A stretch of DNA of 64,000 nucleotides from Chiloscyllium plagiosum (Eukaryota), in contig NC_057753.1 of NCBI RefSeq assembly GCF_004010195.1, positions 3,096,648-3,160,647 on the forward strand, given 5' to 3'. The number at the start of each line of letters is the position of its first letter. Within the stretch, counting starts at the first letter, position 1. The notes below the pieces were generated by a model, which was not told the DNA's origin, did no database searches, and was given only the letters and a program-made list of their open reading frames with translations. The translations under genes were made by a program, and so were the position numbers. Below, piece after piece: positions 3,745 to 45,824 of the stretch.

Positions 3745-4070
3745 AGTCGTAGAATCCCTATATTGTGGAAACAGGCCTTCATCCCAACAAGTCCACACTG
3801 ACCCCCAGACCCATTCGCCTACCTTATTACTCTGCATTTACCCCTGACTAATGCACCTAACCTACACATTCCTGAACACTCTGGGCAATTTAGCCTGGCC
3901 AATCCACCCTAACCTGCACATCTTTGGACTGTGGGATGGAACCAGAGCACCCAGAGGGAACCCACGCAGACCCGAGGGGGAGAATATGCAAACTCCCCAC
4001 AGTTGCCCAAGGCTGGAATTGAACACAGGTCACTCGCACTGAGAGGCAGCAGTGTAAGCCACCTTCCACC
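3745..4070 (-). mobile_element. HE1-type SINE
   Basis: V domain and tail on the minus strand; degenerate head. Confidence 0.85.
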
Positions 4071-4158
4071 ACTTCAGACTGTAACCTCTGATGTAACGTA
4101 GGAAAATGCTACAGTAAACATGCACAGGAAGATCCCATACTTAGAAATGTGATTATAG

Positions 4159-4445
4159 GGGTGGCAGAGTGGTTAGCACCATTGCCTCACAGCGCCAGGG
4201 ACCCGGTTCGATTTCAGCCTCGGGTGACTGTGCAAACTCCACACATACAGACATTCTCCCCCCCACATCTACCTGGGTTACCTCCGAGAGCTCTTGTTTA
4301 CCATGCTAAATTACCCATAGCGTACAGTAGATCTGTTAGCCACAAGGTTACAGGGATAGGTTAGAGGACTGGGTCTGGGTGGGATGCTGTTTGGAGGGTC
4401 GGTGTGGGCTTGTTGGGCCGAAGGGCCTAAATGGATTCTCTAATC
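4159..4445 (+). mobile_element. HE1-type SINE with internal micro-inversion
   Basis: Head gtggcagagtggttagcac; tail ttgggccgaagggcct; V-domain segment 4230-4252 is inverted. Confidence 0.8.
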
Positions 4446-4821: not shown

Positions 4822-4849
4822 GACGTTTCGGGCATAAGCCCGTCTTCAG
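4822..4849 (-). ncRNA. Minimal type-I hammerhead ribozyme motif (family B)
   Basis: Reverse complement reads CTGAAGA-C-GGGC ttat GCCC-GAAA-CG-TC. Confidence 0.78.
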
Positions 4850-11374: not shown

Positions 11375-11612
11375 ACTGACTTTGTGGAGTTTGCACATTC
11401 TCCTCCGTATCTGCATGGATTTCTTCCAGGTACTCCAGTTTCTTCCCACAGTCCAGAAATGTGCAGGTTGGGTAGATTGGCTATGAGAAATGCAGGGTTA
11501 AAGAGTGGGTTGGGGGGGGGGGGGGGGGTGGGAATCATGATGGGCTGCTTTTCAGAGGGTCGGTGTGGACTTGATGGGCCAAATGGCTTGCTTCCACTCA
11601 CTGGGAGGGATT
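11375..11612 (+). mobile_element. HE1-type SINE (5'-truncated)
   Basis: V domain and tail; the tail overlaps the start of the tandem duplication. Confidence 0.75.
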
Positions 11613-11879
11613 CAGTGAAATTAAGGGTGAGCATCACAGATACTTTTTCAAGCCAATTTGGAGTCTGGGCTGACACCAATTGTTAAAGGTTCACTTGAGA
11701 ATGTAAGTTTTTAAAAAGTTTCGCGATTTCCATATGAAAGAAGAGAAACTAACATGGTCATTCTAACAGATGAGAGACTTAACAAACAATCAAGGTATTT
11801 TTCAATGTATAATTTCAGTTCCATCACAGTGTAACCATTTGCTATAAATTCTGTATCTTACAATTGTATACTCCACAGC

Positions 11880-11914
11880 CACCTGATGAAGGAGCAGTGC
11901 TCCGAAAGCTAGTG
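11880..11914 (+). ncRNA. Minimal type-I hammerhead ribozyme motif (family A)
   Basis: cac-CTGATGA-A-GGAGC agt GCTCC-GAAA-GC-TA-gtg: stem I cac/gtg, 5-bp stem II, palindromic AGCT stem III; predicted cleavage after 11911. Confidence 0.82.
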
Positions 11915-12262
11915 CTTCCAATTGAACCTGTTGGGCCAGAACCTGGCGTTTTAACTTTTCAAACTGCAGCCACAAAAATCACTGGGAGGGATTCAGTGAA
12001 ATTAAGGGTGAGCATCACAGATACCTTTTCAAGCCAATCTGGAGTCTAGACTGACGCCAATTGTCAAAAGTTCACTTGAGAATGTAACTTTTAAAAAGAA
12101 GTTTTGCGATTTACATATGAAAGAAGAGAAACTAACATGGTCATTCTAACAGATGAGAGACTTAACAAACAATCAAGGTATTTTTCAATGTATAATTTCA
12201 GTTCCATCACGGTGTAAACATTTGCTATAAATTCTGTATCTTACAATTGTATACTCCACAGC

Positions 12263-12297
12263 CACCTGATGAAGGAGCAGCGCTCCGAAAGCTAGTG
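12263..12297 (+). ncRNA. Minimal type-I hammerhead ribozyme motif (family A)
   Basis: cac-CTGATGA-A-GGAGC agc GCTCC-GAAA-GC-TA-gtg; predicted cleavage after 12294. Confidence 0.82.
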
Positions 12298-12443
12298 CTT
12301 CCAAATAAACCTGTTGGGCCAGAACCTGGCGTTTTAACTTTTCAAACTGCAGCCACAAAAATCAGTGACATTTACAGAATACTAAACTCCAGACTCTTCT
12401 GGGAGGTGTTAGCGTGATCAACAGCAGGATCTAACCCCAGCTA

Positions 12444-13118
12444 TCATTTGTGAACACGCTGATGTGTCAGCAGGTTTGATGGCTGACTGAAACCCTTCCC
12501 ACACACACAGCAGACAAATGGTTTCTCCCCAGTGTGAGTTCGCTGGTGTATTACCAGGTTAAAAGACTTTGTGAAACTCCTTCCACACACAGAGCACATG
12601 AACGGCCTCTCCCCTGTGTGAATTCGCTGGTGTATCAGAAGGTTGGATGGATGAGTGTATCCCTTCCCACACACAGAGCAAATGAAGCATCTCTCCCCAG
12701 TATGAACCCGTTGATGAGCTATAAGGTTGGGTGAAGACCTGAACATTTTCCCACAACTTGCACAGCTGAAAGGCCTCTCCTCTGTGTGTGTTTGTTGGTG
12801 TTCGAGCAAATGGGAGGACCGAGTGAATCCTTTCCCACACTCGGAGCAGGTGAACGGTCTCTCCCCTGTGTGAACTCGCTGGTGTGCAGTGAGGTTGGAT
12901 GAAGACCTGAACCGCTTTCCGCAGGAAGAGCACTTGAACGGCCTCTCCTCGGTGTGAGTTTGTTGGTGAGACTGGAGGCAGGATAACTGACTAAATGCTT
13001 TCTCGCAGACCGAGCAGGTGTATGGTTTCTCACCAGTGTGACTGCGTCGATGGTTTTCCAGTAGGGATGGGTAGTTGAATCCTTTACCACAATCCTCACA
13101 TTTCCATGGCTTCTCCAT
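12444..13118 (-). CDS. C2H2 zinc-finger protein, 8 tandem fingers (224 aa from the first ATG, MEKPWKC...)
   Basis: Intact ORF with 8 CxxC-x12-HxxxH units and TGE(K/R)P-type linkers; the track's start at 13148 is TTG, preceded by an in-frame TGA. Confidence 0.92.
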
Positions 13119-13477
13119 CGTGCTGATCTCCTTCTCCGAATTGGACAATCATGAGAAACATCGTCCACTCACTGGGCGCATACAAACAGACGCTCTCTGC
13201 TGTGATGGTGCAATGTTTGTTCAAACTCCAGAACTGGTTCACGTACTTTGCTGGAACACTCCTATTTAGGAGGACGGGACAGGGGTGCTTCTCCAGTCTC
13301 TCAGTACCTCTTCAGTCACACGGAACGTCTGAAACATTTTCTCACAGAACAGGCAAATCCTTCCTCAGTCAAAGGCTCATCATATTCATCAAAGTCGTGG
13401 CCTGGTTCTTTATTTGGGTCCCCCCTCGAGAACACCTCCCTCTTTTTTAAGATCTTGCAATAAGGAGTTCACGAACT

Positions 13478-13860
13478 CTGTGCAACCAACCCGTATGACC
13501 TGGGGTGTGGGGGGAATGCAAGAAAAAAGAGTTTACAACATTCTCCTCCCCCACTCCCTCTGCAACCAAACCCCCCCTGACCTGGGGGGAAAATGCAGGG
13601 AAGTGGGTTTACAACATTCTCCTCCCCCCACTCCCCCTGTAACCAACCCCCCTGACCTGGGGGGGAAATGCAAGAAAGAGGGTTTACAACATTCTCCTCC
13701 CCTCACTTCCTCTGCAACCAACCCCCTGACCTGGGGGGAAAATGCAGGGAAGAGGGTTTACAACATTCTCCTCCCCCAACTCCCTGTGCATCAAATCGTA
13801 TGACCTGGAGGAAAATGCAGCGGAGTGTTTACAACATTGTTACTCCCACCTACTCCCTCA
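13478..13860. repeat. Minisatellite, 5 x ~75 bp, G/C-skewed
   Basis: Units start tgacctgg at 13496, 13578, 13653, 13727 and 13801; core gtttacaacatt. Confidence 0.95.
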
Positions 13861-15104: not shown

Positions 15105-15741
15105 GACATGATATGGTGGTGCCGCTGTTGGACTGGGTGGACATTAAAAATCACACAAATCCAACAGGTTTAGTTGGAAGCACTAGCTTTCGGAGCGTTG
15201 CTGCAACTATTGGGGCAGCATCATAGGACACAGACTTTATAACAAAAGATCACAGTGTCATACAACCGATGCGACATATTGAACTGTATATCTTTCATCT
15301 CTTAGAATGTGTTGCAAGTTTCGATTCCTTAAAATGTAAATCCCAGAACTTCTTTCAGGTCATGTTCCTGAGATAACTTAAGGTTTTATTGGAAAAAAAA
15401 GTGACATCTCAGCTCAGGACACCTTTAATGCATTGTCTGAGCTGAGATGTCAACTTTTTTGATAAAATCTTAAGTTATCTCGGGAATGTGACTTGAAAGA
15501 AGTTCTGGATTTACGTAGTAATGAACTGAAACCTGCAACCCAGTCTAAAAGGTGAAAGGCTCAACAGCAATCCAGGTTAGTTCAATATATCACATCAGTT
15601 GTATGACACTATGACCTTTTACTGTAAATTCTGTGTCCTATGATCCTAACCCACTAGCATCCTGACAAAGGAGCAGCACTCTGAAAGCTAGTATATCCAA
15701 ATAAACCAGTTAGAGTATAACCTGGTGTTGTGTGATTTTTA
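15105..15741. mobile_element. Long palindromic Penelope-like terminus element (family A, ~300-bp arms)
   Basis: Arms mirror around ~15425 (gtgacatctcagctcag / ctgagctgagatgtca); degenerate hammerheads near 15181 (-) and 15662 (+); TSD actaactctgtg 15093-15104 / actaattctgtg 15742-15753. Confidence 0.85.
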
Positions 15742-16502: not shown

Positions 16503-17429
16503 ATGGAGAAACCGTGGAAATGTGAGGACTGTGGGAAGGGATTCCGCTCCCCATCGGTGTTGGAAACACATCGACGCAGTCACACTGGTGAGAGGCCCTT
16601 CAGCTGCCCTGAGTGTGGGAAAGGATTCGGTGATTCCTCCACTCTGAAGAGACACGAGCGAGTTCACAGGCAGCAGAAGCCGTTCGCCTGCTCCATGTGC
16701 GGCAAGGGCTTCACTCAGTCCTGCCACCTGCTGACCCACCAGCGGGTTCACACCGGGGAGAGACCCTTCACCTGCTCCGAGTGCGGGAAGGGCTTCACTC
16801 AGTCGTCCGTGCTGCTGCGACACCGGCGCGTTCACGTCGAGGAGAGACCCTTCACCTGCACAGCGTGCGGGAAGGGCTTCACCCAGTCCTCGGACCTGCT
16901 GACGCACCAGCGGGTTCACACCAAGGAGAGGCCCTTCACCTGTTCCACCTGTGGGAAGAGGTTCGCTCACTCGTCCACCCTGCTGAGGCACCAGCGGGAC
17001 CACACTGGGAAGAGGCCGTTCGCTTGCTCCGAATGTGGGAAGGGCTTCGCTCAGTTTTCCGACTTGGTGCGCCACCGGCGGGTCCACACTGGGGAGTGCC
17101 CTTTCACCTGCTCCACGTGTGGGAAGGGATTCAGTCAGTCGTCCAGCGTGCTCAGGCACCACAGCAGCCACTCCAACGAAAGGCCTTTCAAATGCTCCGA
17201 CTGCGGGGGTAGCTTCAAAACAGCTGAGGACCTGATGGTCCACCAGAGGATTCACACCGAGGAGAGACCGTACGGCTGCTCCCGCTGCGCGAAGAGGTTC
17301 CGAACAGTATCCAGCCTGCGGAGACACCAGCGCATTCACACTGGGGAGCGGCCGTTCGAGTGCTCCGTGTGTGGGAAGGCATTTGCTCAGTCGTCCAACT
17401 TGCTGACGCACCAGCAAGTGCACGAGTGA
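16503..17429 (+). CDS. C2H2 zinc-finger protein, 11 tandem fingers (308 aa, MEKPWKC...)
   Basis: Intact ORF with good Kozak context (accATGg); 11 canonical fingers; upstream acceptor ccttttacAG at 16156-16157. Confidence 0.94.
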   Translation: MEKPWKCEDCGKGFRSPSVLETHRRSHTGERPFSCPECGKGFGDSSTLKRHERVHRQQKPFACSMCGKGFTQSCHLLTHQRVHTGERPFTCSECGKGFTQSSVLLRHRRVHVEERPFTCTACGKGFTQSSDLLTHQRVHTKERPFTCSTCGKRFAHSSTLLRHQRDHTGKRPFACSECGKGFAQFSDLVRHRRVHTGECPFTCSTCGKGFSQSSSVLRHHSSHSNERPFKCSDCGGSFKTAEDLMVHQRIHTEERPYGCSRCAKRFRTVSSLRRHQRIHTGERPFECSVCGKAFAQSSNLLTHQQVHE

Positions 17430-30885: not shown

Positions 30886-31269
30886 GACTTGGAAGTGCCG
30901 GTGTTGGACTGGGGTGGATAAAGTGAAAAATCACACAACGCCAACAGGTTTATTTGGAAGCACTAGCTTTCGTAACACCGCTCCTTCATCAGGTGGTTGT
31001 GGAGTATAAGATCGTAGGACACACATTTTACATATAAAAGAACTGAAACCAACATGCCTATTCTAAAAGATGAGAGACTGAACAAACAATCCAGGTCTTT
31101 TTCAATATATAATTGCAGTTACATCACACTGTAAACTTTTGCTATAAATTCTGTGCCTTACGATCTCATACTCCACAACCACCTGATGAAGGAGCAGCGC
31201 TCAGAAAGCTAGTGCTTCCAAATCAACCTGTTGGGCTCTAACCTGGTGTTGTGTGATTTTTAACTTTGA
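30886..31269. mobile_element. Palindromic Penelope-like terminus element (family A)
   Basis: Inverted hammerhead-bearing arms (30961-30993 minus; 31180-31214 plus; both have stem II mismatches); TSD atttaaatat at 30876-30885 and 31270-31279. Confidence 0.85.
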
Positions 31270-34188: not shown

Positions 34189-34986
34189 AAAGGATATGAC
34201 TGAAGTCAAGACTGTCGGTAATAGACAGGACTTGAGAGACAAACATTTCTCTTGGTCTGTGTTTGCCATGTGTAAATCGTCTGCCTCCCTCCCCGTGCAA
34301 GAGGAGTATTTGAAATCCGTTCCAAACAATCCAGGATTTGAACGTGCAAGAGGAGCTTTCTGCTTCTTGGGTGAAATTGGTCATGCACATGCTCAGTCTT
34401 TATTAAGATGGCGACTGTTCCCCTGGGTTTCTCAATTATTTTTCGAAAACAAAAGCTTGTCTGGAAATAACGAGGAATCAATGGTCTGACAAGATGGGAA
34501 AGTTAATGAAATCAATATGAAATTAAGTAGTAATAGTGTCGAGCTAAAGGGAACTAAATTGCAATAAATGCCTGAACCATGGTCAAGCATTCTTAGATTT
34601 TAAAAGAGGAGCTGCAGAGACTGTGATTCTTTTGCCTTAAATCTTCTAGATATTCACTGGAACACTGAAATGCCACCCACTTTGCTCCCTAATGGGTTTT
34701 TAGGTAGATTCCCAATGACAAAAGAGTCCAGAACAAAGGGTCACAGTAAGAATATGGGGTAGGCCATTTGGACTGAAAAGAGGAAAAATTTATTAACCCA
34801 GAGAGCAATGAGAATTCTCTTCCACTGACAGCAATTAAAGCCAAAGCATTAAATGTTTTCAAGGAGTTAGGCATAGCTCATCAGGTTAAACGGTTCATTG
34901 GATTTGGAGATGCCAGCATTTCAGTTACATCACACTATAAATTTTTACTATAAACTTCTGTCCCTTATAATTGTGTCCTCCACAAC

Positions 34987-35021
34987 CACCTGATGAAGGA
35001 ACGGCGCTCCGAAAGCTAGTG
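34987..35021 (+). ncRNA. Hammerhead motif (family A) in a short Penelope terminus fragment (~34905-35030)
   Basis: cac-CTGATGA-A-GGAAC ggc GCTCC-GAAA-GC-TA-gtg (one stem II mismatch). Confidence 0.7.
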
Positions 35022-42200: not shown

Positions 42201-43619
42201 TCATTGGTGTGTACATTGTTGATGGAGCATTAATTCCTCCGAACTTTTAAAGCACTTCCTGCATTCTGGGCATTTAAAAGGTCGCTCAGAGTGAACACGT
42301 TGATGGCGCATCAGATCCCAGGATCTCTTGTAGCACTTTCCACAATCTGTGCAATTAAAAGGTCTCTCCTCAGTGTGAACGCGCTGGTGCGTCATCAAGT
42401 GAATTTTCTGAGTGAATCCCTTCCCACATTCAGAGCAGGTGAACGGTCTCTCTCCAGTGTGAGTGCGCTCGTGCGCAGCGAGATGAGATGACCATCTGAA
42501 CCCAGTCCCACAGTGAGAGCACCTGAATGGTCGATTATCTGTATGAATACGTTGATGTAACTTCAGTTCCCTGGAACTTTTATAATACTTGCCACAATCT
42601 GGACATTTGAAAGGTCTCTCCTCAGTGTGATCGCGCTGGTGTGCCTTGAGTTGGGATGACTCAATGAATTCCTTCCCACACACCTTGCAGGTGAATGGCC
42701 TCGGCCCAGAATGAACTCGCTGGTGTGTCAACAGGGTGGAGAACCGAACGAATACCTGCCCGCATTCAGAGCAGATAAACGACCTCTCCCCAGTGTGAAG
42801 ACGCTGGTGTATCGTAAGTTGCGATGATCTCTTGAATCCAGTTCCACAATGAGAGCACATGAATGGTCTCTCGTCAGTGTGGACACGTTGATGCACCATC
42901 AGTTCCCTGGAACTTTTAAAGCTCTTCCCGCACTCTGAACATTTAAAAGGTCTCTCATCATTGTGAACACGTTGATGAGACTGCAGATGGCTTGAAGTTT
43001 TGAAGCACTTCCTGCAGTTCGGGCATTTATAAGGTCTCTCCTCAATGAGAACCTGCTGGGGTTCCTTGACATGATCTGACTGAGTGAGTTCACTCCCACA
43101 TTCGGGAGTGGCTGGCCTTTCCTCGCTGTGAATGCGCTCATGTACAGTGAGTTGAGATGACCGCTTGAAGCCAGCCCCACAGTGAGAACAGCTGAACCGC
43201 CTCTCCTCAGTATGAACACATTGATGGGACGTCAGATCATTGCAACTTTTAAAGCACTTCCCACAGTCTGTACAATTAAAAGGCCTCTCCTCAGTGTGAA
43301 CTCGCTGGTGTGTGAGCAGGGTAGATAGCTTAGTGAATCCTTTCTCACACTTGAAACAGATGAACGGCCTCTCTCCTGTGTGACTACGTTGGTGAATTTT
43401 CAGCGCACCGCAGTGACTGAATCCTTTCTCACAGTCCGTGGATTTCCCCAGTTTCTCCCCAGTGGCACTGCATTTGTGGTTCTTAAGGCCGGTCGATTGG
43501 TTGAAGCCTTTTCTACATATAGAGCACGTGAACCTCTTCTCCCCACTGTGAATAGTACTTTTTTCTTCCATGTTTAAAATTTGCTGAGATTCAGGTTCTG
43601 ATAACTTGGGTGACTCCAT
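42201..43619 (-). CDS. C2H2 zinc-finger protein, 472 aa, 13 canonical and ~3 degenerate fingers
   Basis: Intact ORF; acceptor (rc) gaatttaacAG at 43681-43682; candidate donor (rc) GTAAGT at 44966-44971 links it to the CpG island at 45 kb. Confidence 0.93.
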   Translation of the reverse strand: MESPKLSEPESQQILNMEEKSTIHSGEKRFTCSICRKGFNQSTGLKNHKCSATGEKLGKSTDCEKGFSHCGALKIHQRSHTGERPFICFKCEKGFTKLSTLLTHQRVHTEERPFNCTDCGKCFKSCNDLTSHQCVHTEERRFSCSHCGAGFKRSSQLTVHERIHSEERPATPECGSELTQSDHVKEPQQVLIEERPYKCPNCRKCFKTSSHLQSHQRVHNDERPFKCSECGKSFKSSRELMVHQRVHTDERPFMCSHCGTGFKRSSQLTIHQRLHTGERSFICSECGQVFVRFSTLLTHQRVHSGPRPFTCKVCGKEFIESSQLKAHQRDHTEERPFKCPDCGKYYKSSRELKLHQRIHTDNRPFRCSHCGTGFRWSSHLAAHERTHTGERPFTCSECGKGFTQKIHLMTHQRVHTEERPFNCTDCGKCYKRSWDLMRHQRVHSERPFKCPECRKCFKSSEELMLHQQCTHQ

Positions 43620-45506: not shown

Positions 45507-45824
45507 CAAAGTTTAAAGATCACACAACAGCAGATTACAGTCCAACAGGTTCATTGGAAGCACTAGCTTTAAAAGTGCTGCTCCTTCAGCAGGTGGTTGT
45601 GGACAATACCGACACAGAATTTGTAGCCACAATTATGGTCTTATTCTCCACAACCAACTGTATCACATCTCCCTGACACTGGTCTCCTTTGGCTATGAAT
45701 TCTGTCAGCATAACCTTCACAACCACCTGAAGGAGGAGAGGCGAAAGCTAGTGCTTCCAAATCAGCCTGTTGGATTATAACCTGGTGGTGTGATTTTTAA
45801 GTTTGTCCACCCCAGTCCCTCCAA
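45507..45824. mobile_element. Palindromic Penelope-like terminus element (family A, decayed hammerheads)
   Basis: ~150-bp inverted arms; TSD atcttgggtaatagga 45491-45506 / atcttggtaacagga 45825-45839. Confidence 0.8.

Follow-up and report, generated by a model that had tools for sequence, protein, structure and literature searches.

Two hammerhead ribozyme motifs that stand in direct order 383 nt apart, a short distance from the end of a zinc-finger gene, raise the question of whether Chiloscyllium plagiosum carries at this place a retrozyme-like cassette or the remains of an abundant retroelement. The window in which they lie is the whole stretch of 64,000 nucleotides that was analysed (contig NC_057753.1, positions 3,096,648 to 3,160,647), and all coordinates below refer to it except where another locus is named. 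The reading to which we assign a probability of about 80% is that a local tandem duplication of DNA doubled the 3′ end of a dead, 5′-truncated Penelope-type element (PLE) and, along with it, about 95 bp of flanking host sequence, and that the product has no function of its own.

The direct repeat extends from 11598 to 12364 and was assigned a period of 383, 2.0 copies, 95% matches and a score of 1404 when Tandem Repeats Finder (TRF) was applied to the window. Unit 1 (11598-11980) and unit 2 (11981-12364), both given on the plus strand, were delimited by TRF and by alignment; 365 of 386 columns are invariant in the MAFFT alignment of the two, and BLAST gives 95.3% identity over 384. The repeat lies downstream of a C2H2 zinc-finger (ZNF) gene, the last coding stretch of which is a minus-strand ORF with eight fingers at 12444-13148. 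Its stop codon (12444-12446) is 80 bp from the end of the repeat, and the hammerheads are antisense to the gene.

Minimal hammerhead motifs in the two units

A descriptor scan identified minimal type-I hammerhead motif 1, with loop AGT, at 11880-11914 and motif 2, with loop AGC, at 12263-12297, both on the plus strand and with predicted cuts after 11911 and after 12294, which gives a spacing of 383 nt. Both units carry the motif cac-CTGATGA-A-GGAGC-NNN-GCTCC-GAAA-GC-TA-gtg, and the sole difference between the two motifs is the third base of loop 2, T at 11898 and C at 12281. The catalytic boxes CTGATGA, GAAA and TA occur in type-I order within the cores HHR1 (11883-11911) and HHR2 (12266-12294). 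The A at 11890 and 12273 is bulged, helix II (GGAGC/GCTCC) comprises 5 bp and a 3-nt loop and contains the G10.1-C11.1 closing pair, and A17 is present. A helix III hairpin is absent, and A-GC-T forms the palindromic AGCT tetrad of a dimeric helix III; helix I, corresponding to stem I (cac/gtg), consists of 3 bp, a mismatch and 2 bp and has no defined loop 1, as in a minimal variant. The minimal PLE hammerhead has been described by its catalytic boxes, an unpaired nucleotide between A9 and 10.1, the G10.1-C11.1 pair and the palindromic tetrad (15.2-16.2); its loop 3 is absent or nearly so, and helix III therefore has to be formed between two motifs (PMC4209133). All four traits are found in both units, so that both motifs are PLE-type minimal hammerheads, for which cleavage is predicted from the sequence.

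Rfam gave no matches at gathering score in the window, and the four matches obtained on 11550-12420 at E<=10 did not include a hammerhead. Such silence is natural for models that presuppose a hairpin in helix III, and it is not counted against the motif. Thermodynamic folding of the 59-nt motif contexts, together with cofolding, did not recover the hammerhead fold, a result that is uninformative for minimal hammerheads.

Scanning of the window and of loci elsewhere in the genome with the descriptor revealed three motif families that have the same traits and different stems (GGAGC/GCTCC with AGCT, GGGC/GCCC with ACGT, and GTTACCT/GGGTGAC with ACGT). This covariation of the stems between families indicates that the motif is maintained in active PLE lineages. 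A lesion in the core, helix III or stem I is found in 7 of 20 aligned copies of the family, and both motifs in the window are intact by the descriptor; given about 2.8% change per unit, survival of both by chance is the likelier outcome. On all of these structural points the preliminary description of the locus is confirmed: it had reported a direct repeat of two units of about 382 bp with about 95% identity, Penelope-type minimal type-I hammerheads with a palindromic AGCU helix III that differ at one base of the stem II loop, predicted cuts after 11911 and 12294, and the stop codon of an eight-finger ZNF about 80 bp away on the opposite strand.

The PLE family behind the motif-bearing DNA

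The motif-bearing 288-296 bp of each unit is a piece of a dispersed PLE family, longer copies of which run upstream into an ORF with RT and GIY-YIG-like parts. For unit positions 65-353 (11664-11950 and 12045-12333), a genome search with 4619 first-look candidates yielded 46 further matches, with identities of 84-94%. By homology to the family, the 5′-truncated fragment of the PLE 3′ untranslated end was assigned to 11664-11959 in unit 1 and to 12045-12342 in unit 2, on the plus strand in both; in unit 1 the homology is clear to 11950 and probable to about 11959, through ...TTTTAACTTTT, which is the short-form 3′ end. An alignment of 20 copies with 70 nt of flank showed that the family reaches further 5′ than the window copy, and pairwise extension placed the truncation points of the copies at scattered positions from 15 to more than 676 nt upstream of the 5′ end of the window copy, which is the pattern of a 5′-truncating retroelement.

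The coding capacity of the family is shown by two of the longer copies, L034 and L014. The open frame of L034 (2105-3898 of that locus, 597 aa) matches RVT_1 in Pfam at E = 1.1e-7 (32.2 bits, cutoff 29.6) and contains a YIDD motif and, by eye, a C-terminal VVY...(10 aa)...WYIGET...R...E block that is GIY-YIG-like. The terminal repeat of L034 flanks this ORF on both sides, at 713-866 and 3960-4241, and the hammerhead is located at 4172. Upstream in L014 there are ORF fragments on both strands with a ...WYIGETEQRLRQWMNGH... block. The hammerhead is situated in the 3′ untranslated part of the element, and its distance from the ORF stop is about 630 nt in L014 and about 270 nt in L034. Pfam recognized GIY-YIG neither in the L034 ORF nor in three fragments of L014, and a PDB sequence search with the L034 ORF returned 0 matches. 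A genome search with the GIY-YIG-like piece gave 44,918 first-look candidates, 150 of which were scored, and all 150 matched. The nearest named ESM Atlas cluster, which scores 0.96 and has RVT_1 on 48% and GIY-YIG (PF01541) on 47% of its members, is taken as a lead only. Locus L033, with a reported frame of 939 aa, was rejected as a coding representative because it contains no ORF of at least 250 aa.

Head-to-head inverted partners are frequent in the family, the first 100 listed motif places including 11 -/+ pairs at distances below 2 kb, and an AC-rich tail of about 36 nt (TGTACACCCCAGTCCAACACCGGCATCTCCAAATCA in L042) is present in 30 of the 55 copies that hold the 3′ half of the motif, the others ending just before it. 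According to passages of PMC8557442, PLEs are marked by 5′ truncation and partial tandems, by a copy inverted upstream, by a tail of 30-40 bp and by a pseudo-LTR hammerhead; the tail is defined by an AC-rich stem-loop within which reverse transcription starts at two neighbouring sites (PMC11167929). The truncation, inverted partners, tail and partial tandems of the present family match these published traits, and its copies therefore carry the signatures of PLE insertion. The long tail of the family (...CCAAATCA) ends in AAATCA, as does the 383-bp unit. Assignment of the last 22 nt of the unit to a PLE tail was dropped as unsupported, because 43 of 300 shuffles scored as well.

The 35-nt motif, with its three loop bases left free, has 12,186 copies in the genome (6164 + 6022), compared with 0 + 0 for the reversed control, and is therefore far beyond chance. 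Direct pairs of motifs, which were counted with a two-half pattern shorter than the full two-motif pattern, amount to 89 (43 + 46, with matches spanning 279-476 nt; control 0). When 20 of these 89 pairs were sampled, six proved to be PLE-style head-to-tail dimers with differing truncation points and 0-45 nt between the copies (L041, L042, L043, L044, L050 and L056), and one (L058) resembled the window locus in that both copies share their start point; the remaining 13 were more complex or inverted. At L038, a 357-bp tandem of 2.0 copies at 96% duplicates host flank together with an inverted PLE pair. Direct hammerhead dimers are a recurrent by-product in this genome, and the window locus is ordinary.

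Origin of the 383-bp dimer

About a quarter of the 383-bp unit (some 95 bp) is host flank, the end of a SINE included. A SINE-like repeat that is unrelated to the PLE fragment, recognized by homology to other copies in the window and in the loci, occupies 11385-11625; its last 25 nt or so (11600-11625) lie inside unit 1, and the left breakpoint of the duplication falls within it. Nineteen other copies of this SINE run on past ...gtttccac with ACTGTAGGGAATCTAATCTAA-like tails, and the first 25 nt or so of each unit resemble the terminal ACTGTAGGGAATCTAATCTAA. Unit 2 opens with the last 25 nt or so of the SINE, the body of which is absent there. The host 5′ flank in unit 1 (11598-11663, plus strand) comprises the SINE tail, as judged by comparison with other SINE tails, and about 40 nt of unique DNA with a genome match at this locus only; it is duplicated at 11981-12044. 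The 94-nt piece across the unit junction (11951-12044, plus strand), which consists of 30 nt of 3′ flank and a 64-nt copy of the 5′ flank, gave three candidates and three matches in a search of the 3.56-Gb genome, all at its own locus, and the only full-length matches to the 383-bp unit in the genome are the two units themselves. The trinucleotide TCA is found at both outer edges of the repeat and again where the two units meet, and constitutes a 3-nt microhomology.

A local duplication is indicated because the junction piece is confined to a single locus, because unit 2 has the SINE end without the SINE body, and because the array holds exactly 2.0 copies. When 290 columns were polarised against 20 family copies, 11 changes were shared and derived, 8 were private to unit 1, 8 were private to unit 2 and 1 was ambiguous. 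The 11 shared changes and the 8/8 split of the private ones fit one insertion, followed by duplication and then by equal neutral drift. One private change falls within the 35-nt motif, where about two are expected (16 changes in 290 columns), in line with neutral change elsewhere in the unit. The SINE and PLE insertions probably came first, the 383-bp segment would then have been duplicated at the TCA microhomology, and about 2.8% independent neutral change would have accumulated in each unit after the duplication. Any role of the hammerhead would lie in the life cycle of PLE master copies that are active and not at the window locus. The preliminary description, which named a genome-wide search of the unit junction as a check, had put forward a local duplication and a start of the unit inside a SINE tail; both proposals stand, the former because the junction piece is unique in the genome and includes the SINE tail, the latter because other SINE copies continue past the breakpoint with ACTGTAGGGAATCTAATCTAA-like sequence.

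An improbable alternative is that the dimer arose by retro-duplication, in which a read-through RNA extending from the SINE tail through the truncated copy would have been reverse-transcribed by a PLE enzyme from a nick in the 3′ end of that copy. This would put a second flank and PLE fragment directly downstream of the first and would be a true first step towards a non-autonomous PLE derivative (retrozyme). Reports on the PLE enzyme describe nicks in AT-rich DNA of its own pLTR and the formation of partial tandems (PMC11167929 and passages of PMC8557442), and the route is consistent both with the 6 of 20 sampled direct dimers in which a second copy with another truncation point follows within 0-45 nt and with the resemblance of the AAATCA end of the unit to the family tail. 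However, PLE-style dimers differ in their 5′ truncation points and lack duplicated host DNA, unlike the window locus, and the likeness of the last 22 nt of the unit to the tail is not significant. Furthermore, exactly 2.0 copies and the TCA microhomology fit a DNA duplication as well, and the 383-bp unit has spread no further in the genome.

The evidence for a duplication of either kind is the assembly itself, and there is a modest chance of a one-unit allele or species or of an assembly error. Eight runs of reads (X5, X19, X20 and X1, and the DNA-like X15-X18) were aligned to the locus at 97% likeness, at which diverged unit-2 contigs would drop out. No contig in the eight runs bridges unit 1 to unit 2, and cover of 11972-12059 is zero; this is a hole and not proof, since the runs may be from other species or individuals, and even the best one contains no more than 0.58 of the sampled words. 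In four runs, contigs that begin at 12288/12289 continue without a break into the right flank with 3-4 differences (to 12528 in X1, 12536 in X15, 12620 in X18 and 12700 in X16), and thus across 12364/12365, although the preceding 54 nt are identical in the two units and a 31-mer graph should presumably branch there if both were present. The left contigs (11579-11721 in X15 and 11570-11752 in X17) pass from the SINE into unit 1 and show no difference to it. The depth of X5, X19, X20 and X1 is limited to family-wide parts and comes from other copies, 98% of the X19 reads running on unlike the locus. These contigs would be explained if the sequenced population had one unit and the tandem were false or private to the assembly, which is quite unlikely in view of the difference of about 5% between the units and the symmetric 8/8 split of derived changes; such divergence is far above the allelic level and unlike the result of gap-filling or haplotype duplication, and there are no Ns near the repeat in the assembly.

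The would-be RNA and comparison with known systems

Should the plus strand of the duplicated PLE end be transcribed, AGCU/AGCU pairing between the motifs could give a dimeric hammerhead with cuts after 11911 and 12294. The would-be 383-nt RNA (11912-12294) has an MFE of -80 kcal/mol compared with -81 ± 5.2 for shuffles (z = +0.19), and thus no excess structure. An AATAAA hexamer at 12304-12309 on the plus strand, identified in the family alignment, follows the cut site of motif 2 at a distance of 10 nt; to judge from its sequence, plus-strand transcripts would likely terminate there, soon after motif 2. At this position the family majority is ATTAAA and unit 1 has ATTGAA, and family-level poly(A)-tailed reads end about 13 nt beyond it. 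As for the runs of reads, X20 gave no alignment and no pile-up of ends occurs at 11911/11912 or 12294/12295; the comparison covered only about 2% of X19, so that these data are no evidence on expression. The minimal hammerheads of PLEs cleave weakly in vitro, even as dimers (PMC4209133), and in a reconstituted PLE the hammerhead cleaves only with the protein of the element, RNA-seq ends at the cut site not having been found in Anolis (PMC11167929). Nothing supports a selected circular RNA from the repeat; no function is assigned to this locus, and its hammerhead is left over from the PLE life cycle.

It is accordingly very unlikely that the locus works as a retrozyme-like cassette, in which dimerised hammerheads in a plus-strand transcript would release a 383-nt RNA, linear or circular, that is complementary to the 3′ region of the ZNF and has some regulatory effect. 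Both motifs are intact, and as two complete direct motifs 383 nt apart they fall under the operational definition of an "active retrozyme" given in part of preprint 10.64898/2026.07.22.740005, in which a TRF repeat with at least two consecutive units bearing complete minimal or canonical HHRs is required, so that the window locus counts. In addition, dimeric constructs from axolotl cleave better than monomers according to passages of PMC7229834. Other passages of that paper, however, reserve the retrozyme class for canonical type-I hammerheads and set the minimal PLE variants apart, and the latter are poor in vitro (PMC4209133) or protein-dependent (PMC11167929). The unit is also restricted to a single locus and is part host DNA, there is no sign of selection on its motifs, and its RNA, lacking excess structure, would likely end at the AATAAA.

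The preliminary description had regarded the locus as a retrozyme-like cassette and possibly a nascent retrozyme. This part of it is not supported, because the ribozyme part is the 5′-truncated end of an abundant PLE with 12,186 exact motifs and 89 direct pairs, and because the unit holds host DNA, exists only at this locus, shows z = +0.19 for its RNA and has motifs that changed at the neutral rate. Taken as a whole, the earlier interpretation is partly supported. Least credible of all is that this chance duplication of a dead Penelope tail and host DNA has produced just the pairing of two ribozymes on which dimer-dependent minimal hammerheads rely, and is a retrozyme caught at birth whose 383-nt product, an RNA or a circle, would be antisense to the 3′ end of the ZNF; if true, it would show a non-autonomous ribozyme element starting from a segmental duplication.

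Caution is therefore appropriate in PLE-rich genomes, in which intact-looking hammerheads, even in tandem pairs, are common debris, and pipelines for which two tandem units with complete motifs are enough for an active retrozyme will include local duplications such as this one. The discriminating test here is the recurrence of the unit junction elsewhere in the genome.

Animal non-LTR retrozymes, as described in parts of PMC7229834 and of preprint 10.64898/2026.07.22.740005, are, like the window locus, tandems on the scale of a few hundred bp in which each unit has a single type-I hammerhead; the GC content is low and the sequence is related to PLE termini, and part of the preprint gives a mean unit of 363 bp for its one chondrichthyan. 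In passages of PMC7229834, however, retrozymes are canonical type-I hammerheads in multi-locus tandem families, whereas the window unit is found at a single locus in 2.0 copies, is a quarter host DNA and is not part of a mobile family. Its hammerhead, moreover, is minimal and without the loop 1-loop 2 contacts that those passages require.

There is also a resemblance to EN+ PLEs (PMC11167929 and parts of PMC8557442). The family behind the window locus has RT followed by a putative GIY-YIG-type block at the C terminus, its copies are strongly truncated at the 5′ side, may have a 5′-truncated inverted copy next to them and form partial tandems, the AC-rich tail of 30-40 bp is optional, and the hammerhead lies close to the end of the element; the window locus itself is only a non-coding end fragment of about 290 bp. 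The position of the hammerhead in the 3′ untranslated part differs from that in the Anolis element, in which it overlaps the ORF start (PMC11167929). Another close parallel is the minimal hammerhead of metazoan PLE pseudo-LTRs, of which there are thousands of mostly single motifs per genome, derived from truncated PLEs, with opposite-strand pairs 100-700 bp apart and several consensus families per genome (PMC4209133), as is the case here. Nothing essential distinguishes the window locus from this system; its particular features are the AGCU of helix III and a direct order of the two motifs that stems from local duplication.

Sequence breaks at the 5′ border of the ribozyme

In the genome-wide motif search, hammerhead motifs on the minus and plus strands recur as pairs with a spacing of only 44-48 nt, as at 7638851/7638899, 12299810/12299854, 19156307/19156351, 19332921/19332965 and 27260638/27260685 of G000 C1. 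Many 5′-truncated copies of the Penelope-like element (PLE) begin about 2-10 nt upstream of the hammerhead (reference positions 883-901), and the reads of the PLE family diverge from the tandem locus (window 11598-12364) at 12262-12264. Taken together, these observations suggest a hot spot for truncation or template switching immediately 5′ of the PLE ribozyme.

Duplication and apparent polyadenylation of other family copies

Another tandem of 2.0 copies, with a 357-bp unit and 96% matches, is located elsewhere in the genome, at positions 1419-2131 of locus L038 (G000 C1:17711218-17711930). Its unit comprises host flank and a PLE inverted pair, both of which were duplicated, and the duplication generated two direct hammerheads 355 nt apart.

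Among the single-cell RNA reads of sequencing run X19, 83 carry a poly(A) tail and stop at ...GGACTATAA followed by an A-run, corresponding to window position ~12317; these reads derive from other PLE copies and not from the tandem at 11598-12364. This end lies ~15 nt beyond the ATTAAA of the PLE family and ~23 nt beyond the position where the hammerhead would cleave. Therefore, some copies of the family seem to provide a functional polyadenylation site.

Genomic surroundings and further hammerheads in the window

The window is within a ZNF gene cluster, and C2H2 zinc-finger arrays with 84/168-bp periodicities are found on both strands (16580-17161 (+), 42865-43052 and 12449-12968 (-)). A 74/149-bp minisatellite (13509-13859; 4.4 copies, 84-91% matches) is situated a few hundred bp upstream of the finger exon of the ZNF gene next to the tandem, and the SINE-like repeat to the left of the 11598-12364 tandem contains a run of 17 G residues (11514-11530).

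Two further sequence families of minimal hammerheads are represented at 4849 (-)/4858 (+), 30241 (+), 44797 (+) and 31378 (-). One family has GGGC/GCCC with ACGT in helix III, and its members at 4849 (-)/4858 (+) are head-to-head, with motif starts just ~9 nt apart; the other has a stem II of 7 bp.

Further 3′-end fragments in the window of the same PLE family as the tandem locus comprise a single plus-strand fragment (34918-35021) and three pairs, at 15161-15355 (-)/15472-15729 (+), 30941-31030 (-)/31027-31250 (+) and 45542-45627 (-)/45715-45798 (+), which are inverted head-to-head, an arrangement typical of PLEs.
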